This document shows positions 8,118 to 25,390 of a stretch of DNA of 64,000 nucleotides, piece after piece. Origin of the DNA: Candidatus Marinacidobacterium sp. (GTDB lineage: Bacteria; Acidobacteriota; Vicinamibacteria; Marinacidobacterales; Marinacidobacteraceae). Each line of letters starts with the position of its first letter. Within the stretch, counting starts at the first letter, position 1. The stretch spans positions 3,072,001 to 3,136,000 of the forward strand of contig OZ242011.1 of assembly GCA_965204755.1 (NCBI GenBank), read 5' to 3'. The notes beneath the pieces are model-generated. The model did no database searches, was not told where the DNA came from, and saw nothing but the letters and a program-made list of their open reading frames with translations. A program made the position numbers and the translations under genes.

Positions 8118-8190
8118 CGCCGCTCCGACAGACCGCCCGCCTCCCGGCCGCCGCTTCCTGAACCGCGGGTTCCCGGCGATTCCGCAGCGC

Positions 8191-8997: not shown

Positions 8998-9106
8998 GGG
9001 CGCGCCGTCCCCGGACGACTCCGGACCGCGGGGCCGCCCGGCGCGGCTAGAATCGGTTTCCCCCGGCGCTCCGTCCGCGCCGGGCCCGGGGCGGGGCGTT
9101 GCGAAA

Positions 9107-9178
9107 GCCGGTGTAGCTCAGGGGTAGAGCAGCTGATTCGTAATCAGCAGGTCGGTGGTTCGAATCCACTCGCCGGCT
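9107..9178 (+). tRNA. tRNA-Thr(CGT)
   Basis: Acceptor GCCGGTG/CGCCGGC; anticodon arm GCTGA-TTCGTAA-TCAGC; T-loop GGTTCGAATCC; TAGAAT -10 at 9048-9053. Confidence 0.95.
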
Positions 9179-9231
9179 CCGCGCGGCCCCCCCCTCCCGC
9201 CGCGCCCGACGGGGGCCTCCGCCGCGGGCGG

Positions 9232-10269
9232 TCAGGGCTCGTCGCTCACCAGTTCGCGGTCGGTGATGCCGCCGAGTTCGTGCACATCGTCGGCGCGGCC
9301 GATCAGGATCAGCGTGTCGTTCGCCCGGATGCGGTGGTCGCCGGTGGGAGCGAAGACGAAGCCGCCGTCGTCGCGCTGGATGGCGAGGACCAGCACATTC
9401 CGCCCGGGGTTGATGGCGGCCTGCGACAGGGTCCGGCCGTCGTGTTCCGAGCCCGGCGCCACATGGAGCCGCCCGCCGTCGAAACCCTCCCGGACCATCT
9501 GTTCGATCCCCCGGAACACCCGGGCCATGTGCACCCCGCTGAGGCTGTGGAGCACCCACTTGCCGGCGGTGGTGTAGGGGGACACCACATCCTGCGGTTG
9601 CGCTCCGGCCCGGTGCAGGTTGTTCCGCGACCGCTCGTCCTCGGAACGGGCGACGATCCGGATGTCCCCGTTCAGCGCGCGGGCGGTCATGGCGATGGAG
9701 AGGTTGTCGGGGTCCGAAGGGAGGAGCGCCGCGATCGCCTCCGCGCGCTTCAGGCCCGCTTCGACGAGCACCTCCTCGGCGGTCGCGTCCCCGGCGATCG
9801 CGGCCACGCCCCGTTCGCGGAACTGCGCGACCTTCTCCGCGGACTTCTCGATCACCACGAACTCCCGGTCCTGCGCGATGAGTCCTTCGACGACCGGCCG
9901 GGCGATGCGCCCGCCGCTGCAGATGATGGTGTGGTCTTGCATCCGACGAATCCTCCGTAGGTGGCGGCGGCCGTGTCCGGTGACGATGCGGTCGCCGAGT
10001 TCGCGCAGCGCGAATCCCAGCGTGGCGACGCCGCCGAGGATGAGGAAGGCGGCGAACATCCTCCCCCCCTCGCTGAGCGGGCGGACCTCGCCGAAGCCGA
10101 CGGTGGAGAGCGTGATCACCGTCATGTAGAACGCTTCGCGCAGCCCCCAGCCCTCGATCACCATGAACCCGGCGGTGCCGGCGAGGAAGACCAGCGCCGC
10201 CGCGCCGACGAGCGCCCGCTGCGGGCGCGAACTCTTCGCCGTTCGCGGCGGAAGGGGAAAGGCGGTCAA
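9232..10269 (-). CDS. Potassium channel protein (2TM pore, TrkA-N/RCK, TrkA-C)
   Basis: Selectivity filter TLSTVGFG; Rossmann RCK GDAT; C-terminal TrkA-C. Confidence 0.9.
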   Translation of the reverse strand: MTAFPLPPRTAKSSRPQRALVGAAALVFLAGTAGFMVIEGWGLREAFYMTVITLSTVGFGEVRPLSEGGRMFAAFLILGGVATLGFALRELGDRIVTGHGRRHLRRIRRMQDHTIICSGGRIARPVVEGLIAQDREFVVIEKSAEKVAQFRERGVAAIAGDATAEEVLVEAGLKRAEAIAALLPSDPDNLSIAMTARALNGDIRIVARSEDERSRNNLHRAGAQPQDVVSPYTTAGKWVLHSLSGVHMARVFRGIEQMVREGFDGGRLHVAPGSEHDGRTLSQAAINPGRNVLVLAIQRDDGGFVFAPTGDHRIRANDTLILIGRADDVHELGGITDRELVSDEP

Positions 10270-10329
10270 GACCCGGCGGTCCCGGCCCGGTTCTCAACGG
10301 GCCGTAAACAAAATCCCTCCCCGGTCCGG

Positions 10330-10402
<73 letters not shown>

Positions 10403-10567
10403 TCCGGACCGGGGAAGGAACCGGGAATACTAGGCCGCCTCCCGTTCTTCGTCAACTCGCGCGGGCGTCGGCGAGCCCCTCCGGCAAGCGTTAGCATCCG
10501 CGCCGCCGCGCCGGCCTTTCCTCCTTTCCGGAGTCTTGAGTCGAGGCCTCCGCCGCGGCCTGAGTCC

Positions 10568-11596
10568 GTGCCCGATACCGCGCCCCCTTCCCCGTCACTG
10601 TCCCCGTCCGAGGTCGAGGCCGCCCTCGAAGCCCTCGCCGCGCTGACCGACGACGCCGGGATCGAGGCCTGGCGGACGAAGCACCTGGGCCGGAAGTCCC
10701 GGCTGCAGACCGCGCTCAAGGGCCTCTCCGCGCTCGACCCGGCCGACCGGGCCGCCGCCGGGCGCGCGCTCAACGAGGCGAAGACCCGGCTACGCGCCGC
10801 CCTCGACCGGAAGCGGGCCGAGGAAGAGGCCCGCCGCCTCGAGAGCCGGCCGCCGCTCGATGTCACCCTGCCCGGCCGCCCGCTCCCCTCCGGCCGGCTC
10901 CACCCGATCACCCTCACGGAACGCGCCATCGTTTCCTCGTTCGCCCGGATGGGCTTTTCGGTGATCGAAGGGCCGGAGGTGGAACTCGACTACTACAACT
11001 TCGAGGCGCTGCGCATCCCCGCCGACCACCCGGCCCGCGAGGCCATGGACACCTTCTACCTGGCTCCCGGCGCGGGCCGCGGGGACGCCGCCGGGCCGCC
11101 GCTCCTGCTCCGCACCCACACCTCGCCGAACCAGATCCGCTTCATGGAGCGGAACGCGCCGCCGATCCGCCTGGTCTCGCCGGGCCGCACCTACCGGAAC
11201 GAAGCCACCGACGCGACCCACGAATGGATGATCACCCAGACCGAGGTGCTCGCGGTGGACCGGGGGCTGACGCTCGCGCACCTGAAGGGGACGCTCTACG
11301 AGTTCGCGCGCCACCTGTTCGGCGAGGACCGGGAGATCCGGTTCCGCTGCGACTACTTCCCGTTCGTCGAGCCGGGCGTGGAAGTGGCGGTGAGCAGCCC
11401 CGGCGGCTGGATCGAGATCCTCGGCGCCGGGATGGTGCACCCGGAGATCCTGGAGCGCATGGGTTTCGACCCCGAGGAATACACCGGCTTCGCCGCCGGG
11501 CTGGGCGTGGAGCGGATCGCCATGCTGCGTCACGGCATCGACGACATCCGCCGCTTCTACGAGAACGACCTCCGCTTCCTGGAGCAGTTCCGGTGA
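10568..11596 (+). CDS. pheS: Phenylalanine--tRNA ligase alpha subunit
   Basis: [42 protein letters not shown]. Confidence 0.97.
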
Positions 11597-11621: not shown

Positions 11622-14132
11622 GTGCGCGTCCCGCTTTCCTGGCTCGGGGAATTCGTCCCGCTGCCGGCGGACCGCGAGGCCCTGGCGCAGCGCCTGACCT
11701 CCGCCGGCGTCGAAGTCACCGCCGTCGAGCGCATCGGCGGGGACTGGGAGGGGGTGGTCGCGGGCCGGGTGCTCGAGGTGGCGCCCCACCCGAACGCCGA
11801 CCGCCTGCGGCTGGTCACCGTGGCCGTCGGCGGCGAGGAACCGCCTCCGCCGGTGATCTGCGGCGCCCCGAATGTGGCCGCCGGGCAAATGATCGCCTTC
11901 GCCGGGGAAGGGGCGGTCCTCGCCGACCCGGCCACCGGCAAACCGCGCAAGTTGAAGAAGTCCCGCATCCGGGGGGTGGTCTCCGCCGGGATGGTCTGCT
12001 CCGAGGCGGAACTCGGCCTCTCCGGCGAGCACGCCGGGATCCTGGTCCTCGACGACATCCTCGACGCCGGGGCCGAGCCGGGGACGCCGCTCCGGGAAGT
12101 CCTCGGCGATCAGGTCTTCGTCCTCGACCTGACGCCGAACCGGGCGGACGCGCTCTCGATGGTCGGCCTCGCCCGCGAGGTCTCGGCGCTCACCGGCGCG
12201 CCGCTCGCGCCCTGGCCTACCGAACCGGAAGCCGCGGGGCCGGGGATCGCCGGGCGGGCGTCCGCGGAAATCGCGGACCCGCGGCTCTGCCGGCGATTCA
12301 CCCTCGCGCTCATCGAGGGCGTCGAAGTCGGCCCGTCGCCGGAGTGGATGCAGGCCCGGCTGACCGCCGCCGGGCTCCGGCCCATCAACAACCTGGTGGA
12401 CATCACGAACTATGTGATGCTCGAATGCGGGCAGCCGGTCCACGCGTTCGACTACGACCGGGTGGCGGAGCACCGGATCATCGTCCGGCGGGCGGAGGCC
12501 GGCGAGACGCTGGTCACGCTGGACGGGAAGGAGCGCGAACTCGACCCGGAGCGGCTGGTGATCGCCGACCCGTCGGGGCCCGTCGCCCTCGCCGGGGTCA
12601 TGGGCGGCCGCGACACCGAGATCACCGGGGACACGCGCAACCTGCTGCTGGAGGCGGCGAACTTCGACCCGGTGAGCGTCCGGCGCACCGCCCGCCGCTA
12701 CGACCTGTTCACCGACGCGGCGCGCCGCTTCGCCTGGGGGCTGCCGCCGGAGTCGGCGCCGATCGCCTCCGCCCGGGTCTGCCGGCTCCTCGAACGCCAC
12801 GCCGGGGGGCGGGTGGCCGCCGGCCGGGTGGATGCGTGGCCGGCGCCCGAACCGAGCCATGCGATCCGCCTCCGCCGCTCGCGGATCCCGCAGGTGCTGG
12901 GGATGGCCCCGTCGGACGAGGCCGTCGAAGGGGCGCTCACCCGCTTGGGTTTCGGGGTCGAGCGGGAGGAGGGGGCGGACGGGGCGAGTGGCGGCGCGGA
13001 GGAAGCGGGGCTCTCGGTGACCGTCCCCCGGTGGCGGCGCGATGTGCGGTTGCCGGACGACCTGGTCGAGGAAGTCGCGCGGGTCCTCGGCTACGACGAC
13101 CTCCCGGCGGCGCCGCTCGCCGGCGCCATCCCCCACCACTCGCCGCTCCCCGCGCGGGCGCTGCGGGAGCGGGTGCGGGACCTGGGCGCGGCGGCGGGGC
13201 TCAGCGAAGTGATGACCTACTCGCTGGTCTCGGACGCGGACCTCGCGGCGGTGCTCTCCGAGGACGCCCGCCGCGCCTCGCCGGCGCTGCGGGTGGCGAA
13301 TCCCCTGGGCGAGGCGCGCGACTCGCTGCGCACTTCGCTCCGTCCGGGAGTGCTGCGCGCCGCCGCGCTGAACTTCGACCGGGGCGCCTCGAGCGTGGCG
13401 CTGTTCGAGGTCTCCCGCGTCTATCGGCCGGGGGCCGACGGAGGCGACGGCCGGCCCGAAGAGGCGGAGTGCGCGGCGGCGGTGGTCGCCGGCGCCCGGC
13501 TCGACCGGTTCGGGCATCCCGTCGCGGAGCGGCTGGACTTCTTCGACGCGAAGGCGACCCTGGAGCGGGTGCTCGCCGGGCTGGGACTCTCGCCGGAGTT
13601 CCGGGCGGTCGAGGAGTTCGGGTATGTCCCCGGACGGACGGCGGAAGCGCGGATCCCGCTCGGCGGCGGCGGGAAGTCGGTCCGGGTCGGGACGATCGGG
13701 CAGGCGGCCCCGGCGTCCGCGGCGGCGTTCGGGTTGGAGGAAGAGGCCTTCGCCTGGGAACTCGACCTCGCCGCGCTGCTCCGCGCCGAACCGGACGGTC
13801 TCACCGCGCCGGCCGCCGCCTCCCCGCTGCCGCGGTTCCCGGCGGCGGCGGAAGACTTCGCGTTCCTGGTCCCGGAGGACACTCCGGCCGGGGCGCTCGC
13901 GCGGGAGGCGGAGAGCCACCCGCTCGTCGTCGAGGCGCGGGTCTTCGACGACTACCGACTCACCGAGGGGCAGGGCGCAGAAGCCGCCCCCGGTTCGCGT
14001 TCCCTGGGTCTCCGCGTGCTCTACCGCGCGCCGAACCGGACGCTGAACGAGAACGACATTGCCAAAGTCCGAAGGACGATCTTGAAGCGGTTGAAGTCGA
14101 GTCTCGGTGCAGTCGTTCGGGACCGCGCCTGA
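11622..14132 (+). CDS. pheT: Phenylalanine--tRNA ligase beta subunit
   Basis: HPNADRL, CGAPN, LTPNRAD, INNLVDITNYVM, DLVEEVARVLGYD. Confidence 0.97.
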   Translation: MRVPLSWLGEFVPLPADREALAQRLTSAGVEVTAVERIGGDWEGVVAGRVLEVAPHPNADRLRLVTVAVGGEEPPPPVICGAPNVAAGQMIAFAGEGAVLADPATGKPRKLKKSRIRGVVSAGMVCSEAELGLSGEHAGILVLDDILDAGAEPGTPLREVLGDQVFVLDLTPNRADALSMVGLAREVSALTGAPLAPWPTEPEAAGPGIAGRASAEIADPRLCRRFTLALIEGVEVGPSPEWMQARLTAAGLRPINNLVDITNYVMLECGQPVHAFDYDRVAEHRIIVRRAEAGETLVTLDGKERELDPERLVIADPSGPVALAGVMGGRDTEITGDTRNLLLEAANFDPVSVRRTARRYDLFTDAARRFAWGLPPESAPIASARVCRLLERHAGGRVAAGRVDAWPAPEPSHAIRLRRSRIPQVLGMAPSDEAVEGALTRLGFGVEREEGADGASGGAEEAGLSVTVPRWRRDVRLPDDLVEEVARVLGYDDLPAAPLAGAIPHHSPLPARALRERVRDLGAAAGLSEVMTYSLVSDADLAAVLSEDARRASPALRVANPLGEARDSLRTSLRPGVLRAAALNFDRGASSVALFEVSRVYRPGADGGDGRPEEAECAAAVVAGARLDRFGHPVAERLDFFDAKATLERVLAGLGLSPEFRAVEEFGYVPGRTAEARIPLGGGGKSVRVGTIGQAAPASAAAFGLEEEAFAWELDLAALLRAEPDGLTAPAAASPLPRFPAAAEDFAFLVPEDTPAGALAREAESHPLVVEARVFDDYRLTEGQGAEAAPGSRSLGLRVLYRAPNRTLNENDIAKVRRTILKRLKSSLGAVVRDRA

Positions 14133-14289
14133 CCCTCCGGGTCGGGCCGTCCGCCGCTCCGCCGCCGGCGGGCGCCCCCGCCCGCGGCCCCGCGAACGCT
14201 CCGGCGGGCGTTCGTCGGGCGGGCGCCCAACCGACGGACATCCCGCCGACGGACATCCTGCCGGCGAACATCCCGCCGGCGGGGCGGCG

Positions 14290-15258
14290 CTGTCGGGCGA
14301 CCTCATCGCCGCCTCCCCCCGGATGCGGGCGCTCCTCCGGGACGCCGCCCGGATCGCGCGTTTCGATGTCCCGGTCCTGATCGAAGGGGAGACCGGGGCC
14401 GGGAAGGAACTGCTGGCGCGGTTCCTCCACCGGGAGAGCCCCCGGCGCCGCCGGGCGCTGGTCGCCGTGAACTGCGGCGCGGTCCCGGACGACCTCCTCG
14501 AGGCGGAGTTCTTCGGCCACGCCCGCGGCGCGTTCACCGGGGCCGCCGAGGCCCGCGCCGGGCTGGTCGAGGCGGCGGACGGGGGCACGCTCTTCCTCGA
14601 CGAAGTCGGCGAACTCTCGCCGAGGGCCCAGGCGCTGCTGCTGCGCGTCCTGCAGGAGCGCGAGTACCGGCGCGTCGGCGAAACCCGCGTCCGCCGCTCC
14701 GACTTCCGGCTGGTTTCGGCCACCCACCGCGCGCTGGCCGACCTCGTTGCCGCCGGGTCGTTCCGGGCCGACCTGTTCTACCGGCTGGCGGTGGCGCGCG
14801 TCCGCATCCCGCCGCTCCGGGAGCGCTGCGACGAGTTCGGGGAGATCGCGGCGGGCCTGCTCGCCCGCCTCTCCCGGCGCTACCGGATCCCGGTGCCGGA
14901 GGTCTCCCCGGAGGCGCTCTCCGCCCTCGCCGCCCGCCCCTGGCCGGGCAACATCCGCGAACTCGAGTCCGCGCTCGCCGCCGCCGTCCTCTCCCGCCCC
15001 GGCGCTGCCCGGCTGGAACCGGAGGACTTCTCCGCCGCGCCGCCGCCCGAAGCGGCGCCGACCGGGGAATCCCGCCCCGCCGCCGCAGCGCCGGCGGCGG
15101 ACGGACGGGCCCTCTCCGAAGCCCTCGCCGCGTTCGAGCGCCTGTTCCTGCTCGCCGCGCTCCGGCGCGCCTCCGGCAGCCGCGCGGCGGCGGCGAGATC
15201 GCTCGGCATCACCCGCCAGGGGCTCTGGCGAAAACTCCGCCGCCACGGCATCCGCTGA
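14290..15258 (+). CDS. Sigma-54 enhancer-binding AAA+ activator with Fis-type HTH and no N-terminal sensor domain (start uncertain; ATG at 14323)
   Basis: GETGAGKE, GAFTGA, LFLDEVGE, FRADLFYRL, WPGNIREL, C-terminal AARSLGITRQGLWRKL. Confidence 0.88.
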   Translation: MSGDLIAASPRMRALLRDAARIARFDVPVLIEGETGAGKELLARFLHRESPRRRRALVAVNCGAVPDDLLEAEFFGHARGAFTGAAEARAGLVEAADGGTLFLDEVGELSPRAQALLLRVLQEREYRRVGETRVRRSDFRLVSATHRALADLVAAGSFRADLFYRLAVARVRIPPLRERCDEFGEIAAGLLARLSRRYRIPVPEVSPEALSALAARPWPGNIRELESALAAAVLSRPGAARLEPEDFSAAPPPEAAPTGESRPAAAAPAADGRALSEALAAFERLFLLAALRRASGSRAAAARSLGITRQGLWRKLRRHGIR

Positions 15259-15269
15259 CCGGCCTCGAA

Positions 15270-15860
15270 ATGCGGAGGGAGCCGGGCCCGGTCGCGACGG
15301 AAGACCACCTCGAAGAGGCCGCCGGCGCCGACTACGCCCTCGCCCGCCGCCGCGTCCGCTCCATCGTCGGGGGCCCGGCGTTCGACCGCTTCCTTCGCCA
15401 AGTGAGGGACTACCGCAACCGAACCTACCCGCCGGAGGCGAAGAGAGTCCACCGGGTACGGATGAAAGACGAAGACAAGGCTCGCATCGGACATCTCTTC
15501 GTCGCCGCGCTGGGCGATTCGGCGCGCCAAGTCCTGCCGCCGCCTCCGGGCCTCGGGGCTACGCCGACCCGCCTGGTGCGGCTGTCCCCGGAAACTGCGG
15601 TCAAACAGGTACTCCACCACGGAGACCTGACGCCGGCCGACTACCGACGGATCCCCGACCTCATCGAAGACGAACGCTTCCAGAAGACGGGCGACCGTAA
15701 ACTGGCCTTCTTCGGCTACTACGATGGCCAATGGCGCCGCGCCATCGTGAAGCAAGCCACGAGCGCCGACGAGCTCTATCTCGCCAGTTACCACAAGGCT
15801 CGCCCGAACCAAGTCCCCGAGTCCGTCCGCACGGAACGGGAGCAGTCACAACGGGACTAG
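15270..15860 (+). CDS. Stand-alone PBECR2-like (BECR-fold) putative RNase/toxin domain
   Basis: LSPETAVKQVLHHGDLTPADYRRIPDLI...WRRAIVK...DELYLASYHK resembles the PBECR2 domain found at the C-terminus of phage MuF proteins (by eye). Confidence 0.65.
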   Translation: MRREPGPVATEDHLEEAAGADYALARRRVRSIVGGPAFDRFLRQVRDYRNRTYPPEAKRVHRVRMKDEDKARIGHLFVAALGDSARQVLPPPPGLGATPTRLVRLSPETAVKQVLHHGDLTPADYRRIPDLIEDERFQKTGDRKLAFFGYYDGQWRRAIVKQATSADELYLASYHKARPNQVPESVRTEREQSQRD

Positions 15861-15976
15861 GTGGCGCACGGTGGGGCCCGCAATCCGAGCAACGCTCGGC
15901 AACCCCACGTAACGCGCTGTCCCCGTAAGGGGAACTGGCTACGGCTTGCGGAGTATTACCGTGTCACGTGCGCCGC
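15861..15976. ncRNA. Structured RNA repeat copy A1
   Basis: Terminal stem GTGGCGCAC/GTGCGCCGC; GTGGGG/CCCCAC; crossing CCGCAA/TTGCGG; hairpins CCGAGC-AAC-GCTCGG and TCCCC-GTAA-GGGGA. Confidence 0.7.
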
Positions 15977-16091
15977 CGAGAATGCTAGCACGCCACGCCC
16001 CGTGCGTCGGCGCCACTTGTCGGGCCGGGGCATCCGGTCGGAAGCCGCCCGCGGCGAAGGTCGGCGAGGCCGATGACTCCGTTGATCCGGT

Positions 16092-16209
16092 GTGGCGCAC
16101 ACGGTGGGGCCTCCTGTCCAGCCGAGGCTGGCAACCCCACATTTCACCGGTCATTCCCGAAGGAACGGGCCACGGGTAGGAGAATGTCACCGTCCGTCGC
16201 GTGCGCCAC
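16092..16209. ncRNA. Structured RNA repeat copy B1
   Basis: GTGGCGCAC/GTGCGCCAC; GTGGGG/CCCCAC; crossing CTCCTG/TAGGAG; hairpins CCAGCC-GA-GGCTGG and TTCC-CGAA-GGAA. Confidence 0.7.
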
Positions 16210-16384
16210 CGGGAAGTATAGCGGCGCCGGGGTCGCCTGCCGGGGGCGGGTCGAACCGGGGGCGCCGGTGGGCGGGGAGCCTCCGGATGGCCGAGAGGCG
16301 CCCGAACTCTCACCGCCGGAAACTCCATGGTCCGGAGGAACTCGTCTTGGGAGCGCGGGTACGCCACTCCGGTACCCGACCGGT

Positions 16385-16500
16385 GTGGCGCACGGTGGGG
16401 CCCGCAATCCGAGCAACGCTCGGCAACCCCACATAACGCTCTGTCCCCGTGAGGGGAACTGGCTACGGCTTGCGGAGTATTACCGTGTCACATGCGCCAC
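16385..16500. ncRNA. Structured RNA repeat copy A2
   Basis: Near-identical to A1, 524 nt downstream; hairpin loop GTGA instead of GTAA. Confidence 0.7.
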
Positions 16501-16616
16501 CGGGGACATTAGCGCCCCGGATGTCGCGCGTCAGCGCCACCTGTCTCGCTCGGGGCATCGGGTCGGAAGCCGCCTGCGGCGAAGGTCGGCGAGGCCGATG
16601 ACTCCGTTGATCCGGG

Positions 16617-16732
16617 GTGGCGCACGGTGGGGCCTCCCATCCGGTTGAAGCCGGCAACCCCACATTTCACCTGTCATTCCCGAAGGAACGGGCCACGGGC
16701 GGGAGAATGTCACCGTGCGTCGCGTGCGCCGA
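16617..16732. ncRNA. Structured RNA repeat copy B2
   Basis: Similar to B1, 525 nt downstream; crossing CTCCC/GGGAG; hairpin CCGGTT-GA-AGCCGG. Confidence 0.7.
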
Positions 16733-16949
16733 CGGGAGCGTAGCGCTTTCACTACGCGCCGCCCGGCCGGCCAGCCGGCCCGAGGAGCGAGAGAATCGCC
16801 GGACCGGCGAGGCGCGGATCGCGGATGAGGGCGTCGGCCGGCGGCTCCGGGCCGCCGAAGGCGGGGAGGCCTCCCGCCCGTAGAATCGCCGCCCAACCGG
16901 AATTGCCCGATACGCCCTGCGAAATCCACCCGGACGGAGGGAGTCCGTC

Positions 16950-19900
16950 GTGAGCGGGACGGGGAAGCGGCTGATCGAGGTCGCGTTCCCGTTGGAGCAG
17001 GTGTCCAAGGACTCCGTCCACGAGAAGAATGTGCGGCACGGGCATATCTCGACCCTGCACATCTGGCCGGCGCGGAGGCCGCTGGCGGCGAGTCGGGGGG
17101 TGGTTCTCTCGACGCTGTTGCCGGACCCGGGGGCCTCCGACCGGCGGCGGGTGCTGGAGCGGATGGCGGGGCATTGGACGGTGATCCGGGACGAGGACGG
17201 GGAGGTCGTCGACCGGGTGTGGAAGGACGGGATCTTCCATTGGGGGAAGGAGAACCGGCGGGAACTGGACGCCTTCCGGGAGGAAGTCCGCGAGGTGTTC
17301 GGGGGGCGGGCGCCGCGGGTGCTGGATCCGTTCGCGGGGGGCGGGGCGATTCCGTTGGAGGCGATGCGGCTGGGGTGCGAGGTGGAGGCGGCGGACCTGA
17401 ACCCGGTGGCCTGGTTCATCCTGCGGTGCGCGCTCCACTACCCGCGGCTCGCTTCGGGGGAGCGGCGGCTGCCGGAGTCCCTGTCGGCGTATCCGGCGTT
17501 CGGGGAGGCGCTTGGGTGGGCGGCCGACCGGGAGGCGGCGAGTCTCGGCGGGCGGCGGCGGGGGAGGAAGAGGAAGGCGGGCCCGGAGGCCGGCTCGGAG
17601 GCGGGGCCGGCGCTGCTGACACCCGGTCGGGCGGGCGCGCCGGCGGTTCCGTTCGCGTGGCACCTGCGGGCGTGGGGGGAGCGCGTTCTCGCGGGGGCGC
17701 GGCGGGAGGTCGCGGCGCGGTATCCGGTGTATGCGGACTTCGAGCCGAAACGGCGGAAGGGGCGGGGCTACGACTCGCCGGAGGTCGGTTTCGAGCCGCG
17801 GCCCATGCGGCAGTTGGAACCGGACGCCGAAGGGCTGGTTTCGGTGGAGGAGTTGAACCGGGAGTTCGGCGAGGAATACCTGGAGGACGAGCGGAATCCC
17901 CGGTGGGTGGCGAAACCGCCGGTGGCCTACCTGTGGGCGAGGACCGCGAAGTGCGCGGGGTGCCGGGCGGAAGTGCCGTTGTTGAAGACGCGATGGCTTT
18001 GCCGGAAACCCGAGGGCGCGAATCGGCCGGCGAAGCGCGTGCTCCTCGAGATGACGCCGCGGGCGGACGGGAGCGGGGTGGACTTCGGGCTCGATCTCGA
18101 AGTTCCGGAGGAAGCGGAGACTCCGGCGGCGCGGCGCGAGAGCGACCGGAAATTGGGCGCCGGGACGATGACCCGGCGGGGCGCGACCTGCCCGTGCTGC
18201 GGCGCGATCGCCACGATGGCCGACCTGCGGCTGGAAGGGCGGGCCGGGCGGCTCGGGGAGCGGATGACCGCGGTGGTGGTGGACGGCCAGCGGGGGAAGG
18301 AGTACCGGTTGCCTACGGAGGCGGAGTTCGCGGCGGCGGAGGTGGGCGAGGAGGAGTTGGAGGGGTTGTATGCGGGTATCCCGTTCGGACTTCCCGACGA
18401 GCCCACTCCGAGACCGGGGATGGGCGCGTCGCGCGCGTTTTCGGTGCGGGGTTACGGCTTCGACACCTGGCGGCGCCTGTTCACGAATCGGCAGTTGCTC
18501 GCCATCGGCATCCTGCTACGGGAGATCCGGGTCTGCGCCGAAGAGATGGACGGGTATCCCGAAGCGTGGCGCGAAGCGTTGTGGGTGACTCTCTCCGGCG
18601 CGCTGAGCAAGTTCACGGACTACAGCAGCGCCATCTGCTCCTGGCACAACAGCGGAGAAAAACTGAGGAGCACTTTCGCCCGCTTCGCGCTGCCGATCGT
18701 GTGGGACTACTGCGAAGTCAACACCCTGGCGGCGACTACCGGGGGATTCCTCGCCTCCGTCGAATGGGTGGCGCGGGTCATGGCGCACCTGACGGAGATC
18801 GAGAGCGCGAGTGCGCCTTCGGTGCAGCGGCGGTCGGCGATCGAGGCGATTCCCGGCGAGTTCGATCTCATCTGCACCGACCCGCCGTACTACGACGCGA
18901 TTCCCTACTCCGACCTGATGGACTTCTTCCACCTCTGGCTTCGCCGCGCGCTCCACGGCGTCTCGGAGGAAACCGACCGCGCGCTCGCCTCGGCGCTCGG
19001 CCCGAAGTGGGACGCGGACGCGAACGACGGGGAACTCATAGACGACGCCAACCGGTTCGACGGCAGCCGCGAAGCCTCGAAACGGAACTACGAGGACGGC
19101 ATGGCGCGGTGCTTCGCGCGGTTCCGCGACGCGCTGCGGGACGACGGCCGGTTCGTGGTCGTCTTCGCCAGCAAGGACCCGAACGCCTGGGAGACGCTGG
19201 TCTCCGCGATCATCCGCTCCGGTTTCGTGGTTTCCGCTTCGTGGCCGATCCAGACCGAGATGGCGACGCGCCAGCGGGGCCGGGCGTCGGCGGCGCTCGC
19301 CTCTTCGATCTGGCTGGTGTGCGGGAAGCGGCCGGCGGCCGCGAGGCGCGGCTGGGACCGCCAGGTGCTCCGGGCGATGCGCCGGAACATCCGGGAACAG
19401 TTGCATCGGTTCTGGGACGCGGGGATTCGCGGGCCGGACTTCGTATGGGCGGCCACCGGGCCGGCGCTCGAAGCGTTCAGCCGTCACCCGTTCGTCGAAA
19501 AGGCGGACGAAGAAGGCGAACGAATGGGCGTGGCGGAGTTCCTCGGGCAGGTCCGGCGCGAAGTCGTGGGCTTCGCGGTGAGCCGGGTGCTCGCCCGCGA
19601 AGAGGGAGGAGCGGATTCTTCCCTCGTCGAAGGCCTCGACGACCCGACCACCTACTACCTGCTGCACCGGAAGGACTTCGGGCTCGACCCGGCGCCGGCC
19701 GGCGCCTGCATCCTCTACTCGCTCTCCTGCGGCGTCTCCGACTCCGACCTCACCGGCCGCCTCGACTTCCTGGCCCGCAAGGAGTCTCGCGGCGGGAGCG
19801 AAGCGGAGGCCGAAGCGGACGACGACGACGGCGGCGCCGCCGGAGGCCGGATGCGGCTCAAACCGTGGGCCCGCCGCCGTCGGTCCGTCGGCGATCCCGG

Positions 19901-20225
19901 GGCGGACGGTTCGCCCCCGCCGTTGATCGACGCGCTGCATCGGACGATGCGCCTCTGGAGGGAGGGCGACCAGGGGAAGGTGGACGCCTACATCGCGCAA
20001 ACCGGGATCGCGGAGAGCGAACTGTTCGGGCGCGTCCTCCAGGCGGTGATCGAGATGGCGGAACCGGACTCGGAAGAACGCAGCCTGCTGGAATCCATCC
20101 GCAACCATGTCCCGGCATTCCGCGCCGCGGCCCCCGCGCCTTCGGGACCGCGGCCGGCGAGTCTGCCCTTCGCCGCGCCGGACGCTCCGGAACCATCCAC
20201 CCGATCCGCCGCCTCCGAGTCCTGA
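16950..20225 (+). CDS. DUF1156-family adenine DNA methyltransferase with zinc ribbon
   Basis: HISTLHIWPARRPLAA, SAM motif DPFAGGGAIP, CAGC and CPCC, catalytic TDPPYYD; GGAGG RBS; TAGAAT at 16881. Confidence 0.9.
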   Translation: MSGTGKRLIEVAFPLEQVSKDSVHEKNVRHGHISTLHIWPARRPLAASRGVVLSTLLPDPGASDRRRVLERMAGHWTVIRDEDGEVVDRVWKDGIFHWGKENRRELDAFREEVREVFGGRAPRVLDPFAGGGAIPLEAMRLGCEVEAADLNPVAWFILRCALHYPRLASGERRLPESLSAYPAFGEALGWAADREAASLGGRRRGRKRKAGPEAGSEAGPALLTPGRAGAPAVPFAWHLRAWGERVLAGARREVAARYPVYADFEPKRRKGRGYDSPEVGFEPRPMRQLEPDAEGLVSVEELNREFGEEYLEDERNPRWVAKPPVAYLWARTAKCAGCRAEVPLLKTRWLCRKPEGANRPAKRVLLEMTPRADGSGVDFGLDLEVPEEAETPAARRESDRKLGAGTMTRRGATCPCCGAIATMADLRLEGRAGRLGERMTAVVVDGQRGKEYRLPTEAEFAAAEVGEEELEGLYAGIPFGLPDEPTPRPGMGASRAFSVRGYGFDTWRRLFTNRQLLAIGILLREIRVCAEEMDGYPEAWREALWVTLSGALSKFTDYSSAICSWHNSGEKLRSTFARFALPIVWDYCEVNTLAATTGGFLASVEWVARVMAHLTEIESASAPSVQRRSAIEAIPGEFDLICTDPPYYDAIPYSDLMDFFHLWLRRALHGVSEETDRALASALGPKWDADANDGELIDDANRFDGSREASKRNYEDGMARCFARFRDALRDDGRFVVVFASKDPNAWETLVSAIIRSGFVVSASWPIQTEMATRQRGRASAALASSIWLVCGKRPAAARRGWDRQVLRAMRRNIREQLHRFWDAGIRGPDFVWAATGPALEAFSRHPFVEKADEEGERMGVAEFLGQVRREVVGFAVSRVLAREEGGADSSLVEGLDDPTTYYLLHRKDFGLDPAPAGACILYSLSCGVSDSDLTGRLDFLARKESRGGSEAEAEADDDDGGAAGGRMRLKPWARRRRSVGDPGADGSPPPLIDALHRTMRLWREGDQGKVDAYIAQTGIAESELFGRVLQAVIEMAEPDSEERSLLESIRNHVPAFRAAAPAPSGPRPASLPFAAPDAPEPSTRSAASES

Positions 20226-20296
20226 ACTACGGGGGCTCCGGTATCCGGCCCCCCGGCCGGCATGACCGGTTGGGCGAAGGGGACTGACTCGGCGGG

Positions 20297-20411
20297 GTGG
20301 CGCGCGGTGGGGCCTCCCTTCCGGCCGGAACCGGCAACCCCGCCTATCACCAAGCATCCCGAAGGAACGGGTCACGGGCGGGAGAATTTCGCCGTGCGTC
20401 GCGCGCGCCGC
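20297..20411. ncRNA. Structured RNA repeat copy B3 (diverged)
   Basis: GTGGCGCGC/GCGCGCCGC; GTGGGG/CCCCGC; CTCCC/GGGAG; TCCCGAAGGAACGGG retained. Confidence 0.65.
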
Positions 20412-20542
20412 CCGGAGCCGAAGCCAAGCCGGGAGTGATTCGCGGCGAGGGGGGCTCGCTGCCCGCCGCCCCCTACTATTTCCCTTCCACTTTCCTTCCC
20501 CGTCGGGCCCTCCGCCGGTCCGGCCGTTCGCCGGGAGGCCCG

Positions 20543-23500
20543 ATGGCACACGACACTTCGACAACGACGCCGCCGGAGCGGCGGCCCGCTTCCCGGGCGC
20601 GGCTGCCGCTCCTCCTCGCCCTGTGCGCCCTCGCCGCTCCCGGCGCGCCGGCAACCGCGCAGGAAACCGCGCCGCCGGTCTTCGACGACCTCCGGCTGCG
20701 CTCCATCGGCCCGGCGGTGATGGCCGGACGGGTCTCCGCGCTGGAAGTCGTTCCCGGCCGTCCGCACGAGTTCTACATCGGGACGGCGTCCGGCGGCCTC
20801 TTCCGGACGCGGAACAACGGCGCGACCTGGGACGCGCTCTTCGAGCGCTACACCACGACCTCCATCGGGGCGCTGGCGCTCGCGCCTTCCGACCCGGCGA
20901 CGGTCTGGGTGGGAACCGGCGAGCCGGCGAACCGCCAGAGTTCCTCTTTCGGCGACGGCGTATACCTCTCGTTCGACGCCGGGGAGAGTTTCACCCGAGT
21001 CGGGCTCGAAGAGAGCGAACACATCGGCCGCATCGTGGTGGACCCGCAGCGGCCGCGCCGCGCGTTCGTGGCCGCGCTCGGCCCGCTCTGGCGCTCCGGC
21101 GGCGACCGGGGCGTCTTCCTCACCGAAGACGGCGGCGCGACTTGGCGGCATTCGCTCGCCATCTCGGAAGACACCGGCGCGGTGGACCTGGAGATGGACC
21201 CGACGAATCCCTCGATCCTCTACGCCGCGGCCTATACCCGCCGAAGAACTCCCTGGGGTTTCAACGGCGGCGGGCCGGAAGGCGGCATCTACCGCACCAC
21301 CGACGGCGGCGCCACCTGGTCGCGCCTCGCCGGGGGTTTGCCGGAAGGCCCGGTCGGCCGCATCGGCCTGGAGATCGTGGAATCGAACCCGACGGTGGTG
21401 TACGCGACGGTGGAGCACGCCACCGAGTCGGGAACCTGGCGCTCGGAGGATCGGGGCGGGACCTGGGAGCGGATCTCCGACCTGAACCCCCGCCCGATGT
21501 ACTACTCGCACATCGAAGTGGATCCGGCGGATCCGCGCCGGGTGTATGTCCTCGGCGCGCAGTTCCACCTGTCGGACGACGGCGGACGCACCTTCCGCGA
21601 AAACCGCGACATGACGCCGACCTACGACATCGGCGTGCACGGCGACCACCACGCCCTGTGGATGGATCCGGAGAACGGTGACCACCTGCTGCTCGGCGGC
21701 GACGGCGGCGTGTACGAGTCCTGGGACCGCGCGGTCTCCTGGCGCAAGATCAACAACCTCCCGCTCACCCAGTACTACGCGATCTCGCTGGATATGGAAA
21801 CTCCGTACAACATCTACGGCGGCGCGCAGGACACCCATTCCTGGGTCGGCCCGTCGGCCACGCGCAACCAGGCCGGCATCCTGAACTCGGACTGGAAGCA
21901 GACGAACTTCGGCGACGGCATGGACCAGGCCGCCGCGCCCGACGAACCGGGTCTCGCGTTCACTTCGTCGCAGAACGGGAACATCGTCCGCATCGACACG
22001 GCGAACGGGCAGCGCCTGACCGCGCGTCCGTTCCCCGAGGAGGACGAAGACCGCTACCGCTTCCATTGGCTATCGCCGATGGACACTTCGCCGCACCGCG
22101 CCGGCCGGGTGTACTTCGGCGGCAACCGGATGTTCCTCTCGGACGACTTCGGCGCGGTCTGGCGCGCCACCGAAGACCTGACGCTCCGGGAAGACCGGAG
22201 CGAGTTGCCCATCCTCGGCGTCCTACCGGCGGAAGGAATCCTCTCGATGCACGACGGCGTGTCGCACTGGGGAACGCTCACCACGCTGGCGGAATCCCCG
22301 CTGGTTCCCGGCCTGCTCTACGCGGGCTCGGACGACGGCCGGGTATCGCGGTCCGACGACGACGGCGCGACCTGGGTGTTCCTCGAAGACAACCTGCCGA
22401 CGGAGACCCTCCGAGCCACGATCAGCCGGGTCACGCCGTCCTCCCACGAACCGGACCGGCTCTATGTCGCGGTGGACCGCCACCATTCGGGTGACTTCGC
22501 GCCGCTGGCGTTCGTTTCCGAGGATCGCGGCGAAACCTTCCGGGAGATCGGCGGCGGCCTGCCGCGCGGCTGGGTGAACGACCTGGTGGAGCACCCGGAC
22601 GGCGCCGACCTGCTCGTGGCCGGGACGGAAGTCGGGGCTTTCGTTTCGTTCGACCGGGGCGGTTCGTGGATGCGGCTGGGCGGCGGGCTGCCCCATGCGC
22701 CGGTGGACGACATCGAAATCCACCCGCGCGACCGGGACCTGGTGCTCGGCACGCACGGCCGGTCGATCTACATCCTCGACGACAGCGCCCCGCTCGCCCG
22801 GCATGATCCGGACGCCGGCGTCCAACTCTTCGAGCCGCGCCCGGCGCTCGTGTACCTCCCCTGGAAGCACGAGAGTTACGAGGCGCAGGCGCGCTACGCC
22901 GGGGAGAACCCGCCGGCGGGCGCGCTGCTGACGGTGTTCCTGCCCGAGGGCGCCGTCGCGGGGACGCCGCCGGAGATGGAAGTCCGGAACTCCGGGAAGG
23001 TGGTGGCCCGCCCGACCGTCGAGGCGCGGGCGGGCTTCCAGCGCGTCGTCTGGGACTTGGCCGCCGCTCCCGAAGACACCGCGTCCGGGTCGGCGGAATC
23101 CGGAGGCGAAGACGACTGCGCCATCCCCGGCCCGCGCGCCGCCGTCGGCCGCTATACCGTCCGGTTGACCGCGGGCGGCGTGGAACGGGAAGCGCCGCTC
23201 GAAGTGCGCCTCGACCCCTCGGTTACCGTGAGCGAAGCGGCCTACGCCGAGCGGACGGGTTTCCTGCTGGACATCCGCAACACGCTGGTGGAGGCCTGCC
23301 GCGCCGCCGCGCCGTTCGCCGACGCGAACGAAGACGAGTTCACCGAGGCGCAGCGCTCTGCGCTCACGGACCTCCGCTCCGGCGGCGGCTTCCGCAACCC
23401 TTCCGCCCGCTCCCGCCTCGCCCGCCTCTACTCCGAGTTCACCGGCGACCGCGTCCGCCAGGGCACGCTCGACGCCCCCACCCCGGTGCATCGCCGCCGC

Positions 23501-23557
23501 TTCGCCTCCCTCCGTTCGCGCCTCCTCGCCGCCGCCGGCCTCCTCGAATCCCGCTGA
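20543..23557 (+). CDS. Exported BNR/Asp-box (sortilin/VPS10-like) beta-propeller, glycosyl hydrolase-like
   Basis: GGAGG then ATG 20543; signal peptide; LRSIGPAVMAGRV; many (S/T)xDxGxTW boxes. Confidence 0.85.
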   Translation: MAHDTSTTTPPERRPASRARLPLLLALCALAAPGAPATAQETAPPVFDDLRLRSIGPAVMAGRVSALEVVPGRPHEFYIGTASGGLFRTRNNGATWDALFERYTTTSIGALALAPSDPATVWVGTGEPANRQSSSFGDGVYLSFDAGESFTRVGLEESEHIGRIVVDPQRPRRAFVAALGPLWRSGGDRGVFLTEDGGATWRHSLAISEDTGAVDLEMDPTNPSILYAAAYTRRRTPWGFNGGGPEGGIYRTTDGGATWSRLAGGLPEGPVGRIGLEIVESNPTVVYATVEHATESGTWRSEDRGGTWERISDLNPRPMYYSHIEVDPADPRRVYVLGAQFHLSDDGGRTFRENRDMTPTYDIGVHGDHHALWMDPENGDHLLLGGDGGVYESWDRAVSWRKINNLPLTQYYAISLDMETPYNIYGGAQDTHSWVGPSATRNQAGILNSDWKQTNFGDGMDQAAAPDEPGLAFTSSQNGNIVRIDTANGQRLTARPFPEEDEDRYRFHWLSPMDTSPHRAGRVYFGGNRMFLSDDFGAVWRATEDLTLREDRSELPILGVLPAEGILSMHDGVSHWGTLTTLAESPLVPGLLYAGSDDGRVSRSDDDGATWVFLEDNLPTETLRATISRVTPSSHEPDRLYVAVDRHHSGDFAPLAFVSEDRGETFREIGGGLPRGWVNDLVEHPDGADLLVAGTEVGAFVSFDRGGSWMRLGGGLPHAPVDDIEIHPRDRDLVLGTHGRSIYILDDSAPLARHDPDAGVQLFEPRPALVYLPWKHESYEAQARYAGENPPAGALLTVFLPEGAVAGTPPEMEVRNSGKVVARPTVEARAGFQRVVWDLAAAPEDTASGSAESGGEDDCAIPGPRAAVGRYTVRLTAGGVEREAPLEVRLDPSVTVSEAAYAERTGFLLDIRNTLVEACRAAAPFADANEDEFTEAQRSALTDLRSGGGFRNPSARSRLARLYSEFTGDRVRQGTLDAPTPVHRRRFASLRSRLLAAAGLLESR

Positions 23558-23599
23558 CCCTTCGTTCGCTTGCGCCCCGACCTTCGCCGAAGCCCCGAC

Positions 23600-25390
23600 A
23601 TGAAGATCCTCCACTACCTCGAGATCGAGAACTTCAAGCGGTTCGGCGAGCGCCAACGCATCGAACTCGACCACCCGACCGTCCTGATCGGCCCGAACGA
23701 CTGCGGCAAGACCACCGCCCTCCAGGCCATCGCCCTCTGGTCGCACGCCGTCCGCCACTGGTGGGACGCGAAGGGAGCGAACGCTCGCCGGGACGCGCCC
23801 GCCTCGCTGGTCCGGTCGGAGATCGTCTCGGTTCCGGTGCGTCGGACGCGCCACTACTGGCGCAACCTCGTCGCAAGGAAGGGCAACCGCGAGGTCCCGC
23901 TGCGTATCGCCGTGGGAATGGAGCAGGACGGCAAGGTCGAACCCGTGGCGATGCGGTTTCGCAGCCACGGAGACGACCTCGTGTACTGCGTTCCCGAAGA
24001 GGAGACCCTGGCGAACCGCGATCTGCTCCGTTCCGCCTCGCGGGTGAAGGTGGACCTGCTGTATCCCATGTCGGGACTCGAAATGGACGAGCCGGTGCTC
24101 CTGCCGCGGCGCATCGACGCGTTGCTGGGGCAGGGACAGACCGCCTCGATCCTCCGAAATGTCTGCCTGGAGGCGCGCGGCTCCTCGGAGGACGACTGGC
24201 GCGAGGTCACGCATCGGATGCGGCGCCTGTTCGCAGTCGAACTCGGTGAACCGGTGGCGAACGCTCGCGGAGGCATCACGCTCGAGTATCGCCGGGCCGG
24301 AGCCCGCGAACCGCTCGATGTCTCCTCGGCCGGCCGCGGACTGCAGCAGGTACTGCTGCTCCTCGCTTATCTCTACTCCGATCGTGGTCGAGTCCTCCTG
24401 ATCGACGAACCGGACGCCCACCTGGAACTGCTCCGCCAGAGGCAGGTGCATGTGCTGCTCCGGGATCTCGCCGCGAAGCGCGGCACCCAGATCGTGCTGG
24501 CCACGCATTCCGAAGAAGTGTTGCGGGAGGCGCTCGACCACAACCTCACGCTCCTGCTCGACGGCCGCGCGGAGTCGTTGGCCGGTAAGGGCGAAATCGT
24601 CGACGCGCTGCGCCACTTCGGGGCGGAGCACTATGTCCGGGCGCGGCAGAGCGGGTATGTGCTCTATCTCGAAGGGCGGACCGACCTCGACCTCCTGCGG
24701 GCGCTCGCGGAACACTCGGGGCATGCGGTCCTCGACCGCTGGGACGAGATGCCCAATGTGTTCTTCGTCCGCGACAACTACCCCGATCCCGACGCGGACT
24801 CCGAGTTGGAACGGGTGGAGGGAGGCTACGGCGTCACGCCGCGGAAGCACTTCTTCGGCATCCGCGACATGGCGCGGGGCCTTCCTGGACTCGCGATCCT
24901 CGACAGCAAGGGCCGTTCCCCCAGCGACACGGACGACGGCGGCCTTCGTATCGCCTACTGGCGGCGCTACGAGATCGAGAACTACTTCATCACGCCCGCG
25001 GTGCTGGAGGCATATGCGCTCTCCCGTTACGGGGACGCGACCCTCTTCGCCGGGTTCCGTACCGAGATCGAGTCCGTCTTGGACACGGTGGTCCGGGAGC
25101 GCGTGTTCGGGGGCAACGAACGCGACTTTCTCACTTGGAAGGGTCTCGCCGAAGACGCCGCCCGGCTCCTGTGGGAAGCCCGGACCGAACGACTGAAGGT
25201 CAGCGCGGTGGCGGAAGCGTTCTTCGAGGCCTTGGCGGAGCGCCTGAACCGCCCGGTCCTGCTGCGCAAGCGCGACTTCCGCGACTTGGTTCCGTTCGCT
25301 TCCCGCGAGGCGATTCCGGCAGAGGTCGGAGAGAAGTTGGATCTGCTGAAGAGCCTCTTCGAACGCGCAGAACCCGGGATCGTGGAGTAG
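23600..25390 (+). CDS. ABC/AAA_15-type ATPase fused to a TOPRIM-like domain (OLD-like)
   Basis: IENFKRF, Walker A GPNDCGKTT, LLIDEPDAHL, ATHS; C-terminal YLEGRTD and RYEIENY. Confidence 0.8.
   Translation: MKILHYLEIENFKRFGERQRIELDHPTVLIGPNDCGKTTALQAIALWSHAVRHWWDAKGANARRDAPASLVRSEIVSVPVRRTRHYWRNLVARKGNREVPLRIAVGMEQDGKVEPVAMRFRSHGDDLVYCVPEEETLANRDLLRSASRVKVDLLYPMSGLEMDEPVLLPRRIDALLGQGQTASILRNVCLEARGSSEDDWREVTHRMRRLFAVELGEPVANARGGITLEYRRAGAREPLDVSSAGRGLQQVLLLLAYLYSDRGRVLLIDEPDAHLELLRQRQVHVLLRDLAAKRGTQIVLATHSEEVLREALDHNLTLLLDGRAESLAGKGEIVDALRHFGAEHYVRARQSGYVLYLEGRTDLDLLRALAEHSGHAVLDRWDEMPNVFFVRDNYPDPDADSELERVEGGYGVTPRKHFFGIRDMARGLPGLAILDSKGRSPSDTDDGGLRIAYWRRYEIENYFITPAVLEAYALSRYGDATLFAGFRTEIESVLDTVVRERVFGGNERDFLTWKGLAEDAARLLWEARTERLKVSAVAEAFFEALAERLNRPVLLRKRDFRDLVPFASREAIPAEVGEKLDLLKSLFERAEPGIVE

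Follow-up and report, generated by a model that had tools for sequence, protein, structure and literature searches.

The 64-kb window of the Candidatus Marinacidobacterium sp. genome analysed here (contig OZ242011.1, positions 3,072,001 to 3,136,000) contains a small gene, P0001, whose product ends in a domain related to the C-terminus of the Mu-like phage head protein F (the MuF-C domain), and directly behind this gene an array of short repeats. Five co-oriented copies of the repeated element, each of about 135 nucleotides (nt), lie on the plus strand of the window according to a covariance model (R1) trained solely on the 13 copies of the source genome, and a repeat search agrees. An earlier inspection of the same DNA, referred to below as the sequence-only reading, had placed five repeats there and assigned one shared fold to them, and both points are borne out by the covariance model, the repeat search and the alignment. 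The closing stem of the first copy, A1, begins at 15861, the first base past the TAG stop codon of P0001. The block formed by A1, a spacer and B1 is tandemly duplicated as A2, a spacer and B2 (a duplication of about 524 base pairs (bp) according to the repeat families), and B3 is found about 70 nt 3' of the stop codon of a DUF1156 methylase gene (Table 1). To judge from its sequence, the element is read as a gene or 3'-untranslated region (3'-UTR) module for a structured RNA. It represents a large and widespread phage RNA family, absent from Rfam, whose adjacency to the MuF-C domain is near-obligate across phyla.

Table 1. Features at the P0001 locus, with positions counted from the first letter of the window.
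Feature	Position	Strand	Basis
Sigma-54-type AAA+ activator, RtcR/PspF kind	14107..15258	+	Pfam Sigma54_activat, E 2.3e-64
P0001 gene, 196 aa; C-terminal ~100 aa form a free-standing MuF-C domain	15270..15860	+	Translation, homology
RNA copy A1	15858..15997	+	Covariance model R1, 118.9 bits
RNA copy B1	16089..16230	+	R1, 118.6 bits
Strain-variable segment (A2, B2, methylase, B3)	16232..20456		Missing from related strains' contigs
RNA copy A2	16382..16521	+	R1, 117.7 bits
RNA copy B2	16614..16749	+	R1, 127.8 bits
DUF1156/HmaB-like DNA adenine methylase gene, between B2 and B3	16950..20225	+	Pfam DUF1156
RNA copy B3	20294..20432	+	R1, 102.3 bits

At the structural level, the element is framed by a covarying closing stem of 10-11 bp (S1), which pairs the element's 3' end with the sequence 5' of P1. 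P1 (GGUGGGG/CCCCAC) stacks straight onto S1, and its internal loop opens into an inner hairpin of 5-6 bp with a loop of 3-5 nt (P3). After P1 come a conserved joiner of about 10 nt, a variable hairpin and an invariant ACGG/CCGU hairpin, in whose loop sits the 3' strand of a crossing helix (P2): a pseudoknot arises where 5-6 bases of this loop pair to the 5' side of the internal loop of P1. The fold predicted from the alignment has four helices joining at a junction, namely S1, P1 with its inner hairpin, the variable hairpin and the ACGG/CCGU hairpin, and a single-stranded tail bears a fixed UA. Most of these parts had been recognized from the window copies alone. The closing stem GGCGCAC/GTGCGCC, its GGCGCGC/GCGCGCC version in B3 and the single mismatch of A2 (a C-A) are read in the sequence and in the alignment, and so are the GTGGGG/CCCCAC helix of P1 and the inner and distal hairpins named at the time; the crossing helix is likewise present, in the versions CCGCAA/TTGCGG, CTCCT/AGGAG and CTCCC/GGGAG.

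The sequence-only reading had also argued for selection on structure, and covariation, including that of a true crossing helix, supports this claim in two alignments of different depth. In the 13 copies of the source genome, 90.1% of the alignment cells pair, compared with 84.5% in shuffles, none of which reaches the observed value in 500 trials, and with 34-48% for slid partners. In the crossing helix, all 13 copies keep the five core pairs intact despite seven sequence versions, and four of the six pairs show double-sided changes. Since every copy of this genome retains the pseudoknot while its sequence differs, the copies are maintained and not decaying. Covariation likewise holds in the larger alignment, made from 110 matches in many phages and bacteria (106 of them distinct), where 91.7% of the cells pair against 78.5% after shuffling (0 of 500) and 22 of the 32 nested pairs change on both sides; this alignment was fitted to the covariance model, a procedure that favours the nested helices and leaves the crossing helix outside the model. 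For the crossing helix itself, five bp are perfectly complementary in 95 of 104 anchored sequences, with 13 distinct versions, six of the 110 sequences having been dropped as unanchored and four of the nine misses being B-type copies in which the search expression was anchored on the wrong ACGG. When its partners are shuffled, complementary sequences number 42 on average and 53 at most, and none of 1000 shuffles reaches 95. The folding energies of single sequences are unremarkable (z from -0.5 to -1.9), so the evidence for the fold is comparative, not thermodynamic.

Conservation is not restricted to the helices. The unpaired stretches GGCAACCCCACAU, GCUACGG and CACCGUGUC are more than 90% conserved across phyla, and the fixed UA is located 16-19 nt past a conserved GUCNC, which lies immediately 5' of the 3' strand of the closing stem and served as anchor, in 97-100 of 101 distinct tails (log-odds 4.65, with shuffles at or below 2.95). 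A role as a sponge for CsrA/Rsm-type proteins was rejected, as the Gs of the hairpin-loop GGA pair in the pseudoknot in all copies. In tandem arrays, neighbouring copies nearly always differ in their pseudoknot sequence, in what is a small sample: the window array at 15858-16749 runs CCGCA, CTCCT, CCGCA, CTCCC, and an array at 2.82 Mb of the same genome (L244, 8376-9507) runs CCGCC, CCGTA, CCGTC, CCGCC, CCCCA. Selection against mispairing within one transcript may account for such differences.

The order of the helices had suggested a resemblance to hepatitis delta virus (HDV)-like ribozymes. The strand order P1, P2, P3, P1', P4, P2' does match, as a nested double pseudoknot, and this part of the suggestion stands; membership of the family is not supported by the sequences, and no Rfam model of these ribozymes matches, either at E<=10 on the repeat region or at gathering score on the window and ten viral loci. 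HDV-like ribozymes have a P3 of about 3 bp, an L3 from which, together with J1/4, P1.1 is built, and a P1 whose cleavage-site end is a G-U pair. Here P3 is long, its 5-6 bp and loop of 3-5 nt leave neither L3 nor P1.1, as the sequence-only reading had remarked, P1 begins with G-C and not G-U in 105 of 106 sequences, and a closing stem and a hairpin are added. Self-cleavage by a ribozyme of a new class, or by a very divergent HDV-like one, as a means of processing the late transcript or the array into units would agree with the helix order, with the tandem arrays and gene-end position typical of such RNAs and with the strong conservation of the core nucleotides. It is nevertheless improbable: to the differences just described, and to the lack of any match to an Rfam ribozyme model, it must be added that the covarying closing stem extends across the place where cleavage would occur, unlike in HDV, and that the phage copies are single, leaving no units to cut.

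Various searches delimit the distribution of the family. The source genome (3.98 Mb, 71.7% GC, one contig; G000 hereafter) contains its 13 copies at 102-138 bits, the same set being found by regular expression and by R1. Seven of 61 related genomes, G000 included, carry the element (33 copies in the congener G001, two in G021 and one each in G007, G014, G024 and G027), and it is absent from all 33 genomes of this set outside family f1. Beyond these relatives, a 19-base core pattern occurred in 56 contigs of viral origin and in at least 118 from genomes; of the 56 viral loci, 52 also have R1 matches (53 in all), as do 21 of 73 genome loci (23 matches; a test that left out seven Marinacidobacterium loci) and 13 of a further 38 (16 matches). 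The confirmed hosts and prophages belong to Acidobacteriota, to Alpha-, Beta- and Gammaproteobacteria and to Desulfovibrionaceae (Desulfovibrio/Desulfocurvus); pattern matches in Vibrio, Rhodococcus, Streptomyces, Arthrobacter and others gave no R1 match and were discarded as chance. The comparison with Rfam that had been proposed together with the fold was carried out on the window, the repeat region and the genome and viral loci, and no family matches. At the gathering score of Rfam 15, only tRNAs appear on the window, eight genome loci and ten viral loci (two tRNAs in the window and viral sets), and at E<=10 the region 15700-20600 yields chance-level hits alone (DUF3800-XI with 21.6 bits against a cut-off of 37.8, and mir-74). 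No RNA motif tied to MuF was found in the full-text literature, in which the 224 motifs of Weinberg et al. 2017 were covered through Rfam alone, and blastn against cultured phages with three copies returned nothing real.

The association with the protein domain was demonstrated by retrieving viral loci through the domain alone. In 68 of the 69 loci so fetched, the RNA lies directly behind the domain match and on the same strand, and in the 69th the contig stops 30 nt past the match. Forty-two of these 69 contigs are outside the set found with the RNA pattern, and all 41 of them that have downstream DNA contain the RNA. When 124 R1 matches are taken as the starting point, the domain ends at most 80 nt upstream on the same strand in 70, another 19 are later members of an array behind a domain gene, and seven have too little upstream DNA; the other 28 are considered below. 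From the stop codon to the start of the model, the median gap over 50 distinct loci is -0.5 nt, and on viral contigs the RNA starts between -9 and +60 nt from the stop codon of a protein of about 390-450 residues that ends in the domain. The next gene is gpG-like, with a gap of -21 to +18 nt, or gpI-protease-like, with a gap of about 190-315 nt, so that the overall range runs from -21 to more than 300 nt. The gap to the upstream stop is tight while the downstream gap and gene vary, and the RNA therefore belongs with the upstream gene. The same variation, together with the existence of arrays and of copies without a gene behind them, makes a riboswitch or leader that governs the downstream gene (gpG or gpI) highly improbable, even if the strongly conserved junction and pseudoknot would suit such a regulator and in one phage group the UA tail separates the next gene's ATG from a Shine-Dalgarno sequence. 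Stop-codon readthrough or frameshifting was rejected too, frames 0, -1 and +1 being equally open (medians of 44.5, 46 and 40.5 codons), and the domain gene ends in any of the three stop codons (19, 19 and 12 of 50).

In G021 and G001, the RNA is part of a Mu-like head module with the order large terminase, Portal_Mu, MuF, RNA, gpI protease, gpT. Domain gene and RNA also occur together in the bacterial isolates Tritonibacter scottomollicae DSM 25328 (L226), Nitrosomonas halophila Nm1 (L229), Brachymonas chironomi DSM 19884 (L230), Azotobacter bryophylli KCTC 62195 (L175) and Phaeobacter sp. HF9A (L204). Free-standing domain genes of about 200 codons followed by the RNA are found at three loci of G000 and in G001, G024 and G027, where the neighbouring genes differ from locus to locus and the contexts are unrelated and outside prophages. 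Because the RNA is kept behind free-standing domain genes in unrelated chromosomal contexts, it follows the domain, and not the head module or the operon. This bears on the proposal of a virion or packaging RNA comparable to the phi29 pRNA, whose loops would pair between molecules, hand in hand, into a ring on the portal/MuF complex. According to Iyer et al. (2017, PMC5512222), MuF/gp7 proteins are head proteins associated with the portal, PHROG 220 is annotated as "minor head protein and DNA pilot", and the MuF gene adjoins Portal_Mu. Like the pRNA, the element is phage-encoded near such proteins, of similar size and built around a multi-helix junction with two covarying complementary loops, and the loop covariation fits intramolecular and intermolecular pairing of identical molecules alike. 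In the pRNA, however, the loops pair intermolecularly whereas here intramolecular pairing is equally possible, no similarity in sequence or model was found between the two, and the free-standing copies outside prophages occur with no portal or capsid genes nearby. Neighbouring array copies differ in loop sequence, which fits folding within each unit, and Mu-like packaging is not known to need RNA. A pRNA-like function is consequently regarded as quite improbable.

Arrays of one to six RNA copies stand behind the free-standing domain in the acidobacterial genus, those of two to six copies occurring in G000 and G001, with a unit of about 200-290 nt including the spacer, and the phage copies are single. 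Such arrays, when they reach four to six copies, do not easily make sense as a 3' end, and this has to be weighed in the case of a cis-acting 3'-UTR element of the MuF mRNA that would block exonucleases, form the transcript end or tune termination and re-initiation at the stop codon of F, without binding the domain specifically. The element is indeed always co-oriented with the gene and abuts its stop codon, at a gene boundary within the late head operon. Its unpaired segments, conserved above 90%, and its pseudoknotted four-way fold exceed the needs of a stabilizer, though, and the RNA tracks the C-terminal domain, being retained behind free-standing genes and missing from distant relatives in cultured phages. 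No intrinsic terminator was detected near the window copies, the interval 15000-20700 having only two, both inside the methylase gene, where 2.3 are expected by chance. A purely cis-acting function is for these reasons considered unlikely. As a separate observation on gene arrangement, a locus of G001 (L062, G001:C1:3532000-3551000) has three tandem MuF genes at 6825-11486 with RNAs between them at 8235-8370 and 9837-9972, a layout that recalls the toxin-cassette arrays of polymorphic toxin loci.

At the protein level, P0001 has homologues in P0002 and P0003, encoded at the other two G000 loci, and its homology extends to the C-terminal ends of Phage_Mu_F proteins. The corresponding part in G021 and G001 terminates a Phage_Mu_F protein, and the same fusion, in its head-gene setting, is found in the viral loci; the form in the window is free-standing. 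The domain family comprises 1199 cluster representatives at E<=1e-3, and, with few exceptions, the 150 matches listed place the domain at the C-terminus or close to it. In an alignment of 38 members, S106, K112, Q113, H117 and Y125 are invariant, and G74, K161 and S173, the last a Ser/Thr position, are nearly so. The AlphaFold (AF2) model, a confident one (pLDDT 90.2, pTM 0.85), has its best fold match in the PDB with the RNase toxin BrnT (E 0.038, probability 0.97, TM 0.60 on the target), with CdiA-CT and RelE entries next, and the domain looks, as modelled, like a weakly RelE/BrnT-like member of the BECR fold, hence RNase-like. The N-terminal helix's histidine with a preceding lysine and the C-terminal Ser/Thr are present (K112, Q113, H117; S173; K161), and a Lys-before-His pattern is described for colicin D and PBECR3 in a 2026 preprint (10.64898/2026.08.28.747851). 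The MuF-C of Mu gp30 is presented by Iyer et al. (2017, PMC5512222) as a PBECR domain that is an RNase in orthologues and, where inactive, "probably" binds RNA. Many proteobacterial MuF proteins bear a C-terminal extension called Ct_MAD, of unknown function and confined to temperate phages, according to Jamet et al. (2017, PMC5576092), and the domain is possibly this extension. PADLOC and PHROGs hold no family for the MuF-C domain.

Conserved unpaired stretches and a fixed UA are what is expected of an RNA contacted by a protein. Because the RNA follows the domain, its unpaired parts are more than 90% conserved and the UA is fixed, it is read as the dedicated partner, either inhibitor or substrate, of the RNase-like MuF-C domain of the Mu-like head protein F, a reading that we favour at somewhat less than an even chance. 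The RNA would be co-transcribed with the domain gene; the terminating ribosome would melt the closing stem, which would refold once the ribosome leaves, and the newly made domain would then capture the RNA. Bound in this manner, the RNA may act as a pseudo-substrate or inhibitor, possibly cut at its UA tail, so that the RNase-like domain would be kept harmless in the producing cell, and the complex of RNA and domain may enter the capsid. The RNA would then take the place that in related MuF toxins belongs to a protein immunity gene. The Candidatus Marinacidobacterium form of the domain has lost the MuF head module and lies outside prophages with one to six tandem RNA copies of intact structure.

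The layout of the acidobacterial form, a small RNase-like gene with one to six tandem RNAs, resembles by analogy that of type III toxin-antitoxin systems (ToxIN, CptIN, TenpIN), in which an endoribonuclease-like gene stands beside a pseudoknotted non-coding RNA, sometimes in tandem repeats, and which are small modules, mobile among genomic contexts and often linked to phages or defence islands. In known type III systems, the RNA lies upstream of the toxin gene with a terminator between them, the toxin has the ToxN/AbiQ fold, and the ToxI RNA is 36 nt long. Here, by contrast, the RNA is of about 135 nt, lies downstream and abuts the stop codon, the protein is weakly RelE/BrnT/BECR-like with no ToxN among the fold matches listed, and the phage form has a single RNA copy and a domain fused to a virion protein. 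The motif Mu-gpT-DE of Rfam, found downstream of the Mu-like major head gene, is also a conserved structured element just behind a head gene of Mu-like prophages, but gene and fold are different. MuF polymorphic toxins and MuF-fused BECR effectors share with the family an N-terminal Phage_Mu_F part and a variable C-terminal effector in temperate phages (PMC5576092, PMC5512222, 10.64898/2026.08.28.747851). The protective factor of these toxins is encoded directly downstream in the same accounts, and the preprint describes for another MuF-fused BECR toxin a protein immunity gene in that position; in the present family the slot is taken by a structured RNA instead of a protein, and an equivalent role of this RNA may be supposed.

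Several observations weigh against the RNA being a dedicated partner of the domain. Twenty-eight of the 124 R1 matches have no domain upstream, five of them being more than 1600 nt from a domain gene and 23 having no domain in the DNA examined; they include copy B3, L123, where the RNA stands behind a tape-measure region, and L165 (6159-6291, from a metagenome-assembled genome of Desulfocurvus), where it stands behind an MmeI-family methyltransferase gene and not MuF-C. Some domain paralogues of G000 and G001 are not followed by the RNA, and in cultured phages, where no close member of the domain was found, the two distant protein relatives returned by tblastn both lack the RNA. The assignment of the domain is similarly exposed: the PDB fold search with the predicted model gave no match at E<=0.001, a profile search of PDB sequences with the domain found nothing, Pfam PBECR3 matches weakly in 11 of 38 members with a best E of 5.7e-4, all under the curated cut-off, and P0001 itself has no match in Pfam, NCBIfam, PADLOC or PHROG. 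Neither the type III gene order, with the RNA upstream, nor the ToxN/AbiQ fold is met with here. Stoichiometry raises a further objection, as each mRNA supplies one RNA and many copies of the protein, unless translation or the life of the mRNA is limited. Finally, the sampling of RNA loci began from an exact sequence pattern, so that divergent RNAs are under-sampled.

Some relatives of the domain deserve mention in this context. One open reading frame of G000 (L058, G000:C1:1183795-1184400) contains two tandem MuF-C-like domains with no RNA behind it, and a gene of G001 at 1769130-1769948 resembles it; both belong to domain relatives that do without the RNA. Copies B3, behind the DUF1156 methylase, and L165 constitute two cases of the RNA behind a defence-type methylase.

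The surroundings of P0001 in the window add several features. The activator ends 12 nt upstream of P0001 and matches PADLOC RtcR_PspF2 (E 2.8e-106) over profile positions 166-480 of 481, without the CARF domain. It is not found at the other two loci of P0001 homologues in G000; an RNA-repair-type regulator beside an RNase-like protein and RNA arrays is suggestive, although it is local to the window locus. A sigma-54 promoter in the element, with TGGCGC-N5-GGGG as the -24/-12 boxes, was rejected because the -12 box has, by eye, its GC shifted one base out of register and the activator is absent at the other loci. The methylase is identified by NCBIfam as an anti-phage-associated DUF1156 protein and by PADLOC as HmaB (E 1.2e-108). 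Genes with this domain are strikingly numerous, with seven matches in G000 and 21 in G001, and among them only the copy in the window is near an RNA element. Behind B3 come a BNR/sortilin-repeat protein (20543-23557) and an ATPase like OLD, Gabija GajA and AriA (AAA_21, AAA_15; 23570-25390), and the surroundings as a whole resemble a defence island.

Part of this region varies among strains. In contigs of the runs X4 and X10, position 16231 is joined to 20457 with 21 other letters between, so that A2, B2, the methylase and B3 are missing, and the repeats do serve as recombination points. A solo defence-type methylase is thereby carried between RNA copies as a strain-variable cassette, and the methylase is a passenger of this segment, with no link in function to the RNA shown. 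Such behaviour might indicate that the element acts at the DNA level, as a recombination site, a cassette boundary or a miniature mobile repeat, its structure being a by-product. The copy number does swing among close relatives (13, 33, 2, 1 and 0), the breaks of the segment missing in related strains are at equivalent places of B-type copies, and some copies lie behind unrelated genes. Nevertheless, compensatory changes keep five helices, pseudoknot included, in 106 distinct sequences, which a DNA site would not need; element and upstream gene share a strand without exception (68 of 68); beyond the stem there are neither terminal inverted repeats nor target duplications; and plain homologous recombination between repeats explains the strain difference. 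An element of this kind is very improbable. Integron attC sites, repetitive extragenic palindromes (REP) and miniature inverted-repeat transposable elements (MITE) were rejected in particular, since R'/R'' cores and terminal repeats are lacking and the fold is not a simple palindrome.

Taken at its widest, the proposal would describe a so far undescribed and widespread ribonucleoprotein of Mu-like phages, in which an RNase domain of RelE/BECR fold on head protein F has the 135-nt RNA as its built-in immunity factor, and possibly also as a cofactor delivered by the virion, with a toxin fold and gene order unlike those of type III systems, and which has been domesticated in acidobacteria with diversified arrays as recombination points for defence-gene cassettes. 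This full version is doubtful and is held as rather unlikely, and we know of no type III family whose toxin fold and gene order do not differ from those found here. A structured RNA at the end of exactly the MuF-C coding region is a concrete candidate ligand and makes the function of the domain accessible to tests at the bench. If the RNA inhibits the domain or is processed by it, RNA-antitoxin systems would reach a second toxin fold as well as virion proteins, and if it is packaged, these would be rare tailed double-stranded DNA phages that deliver a dedicated RNA.

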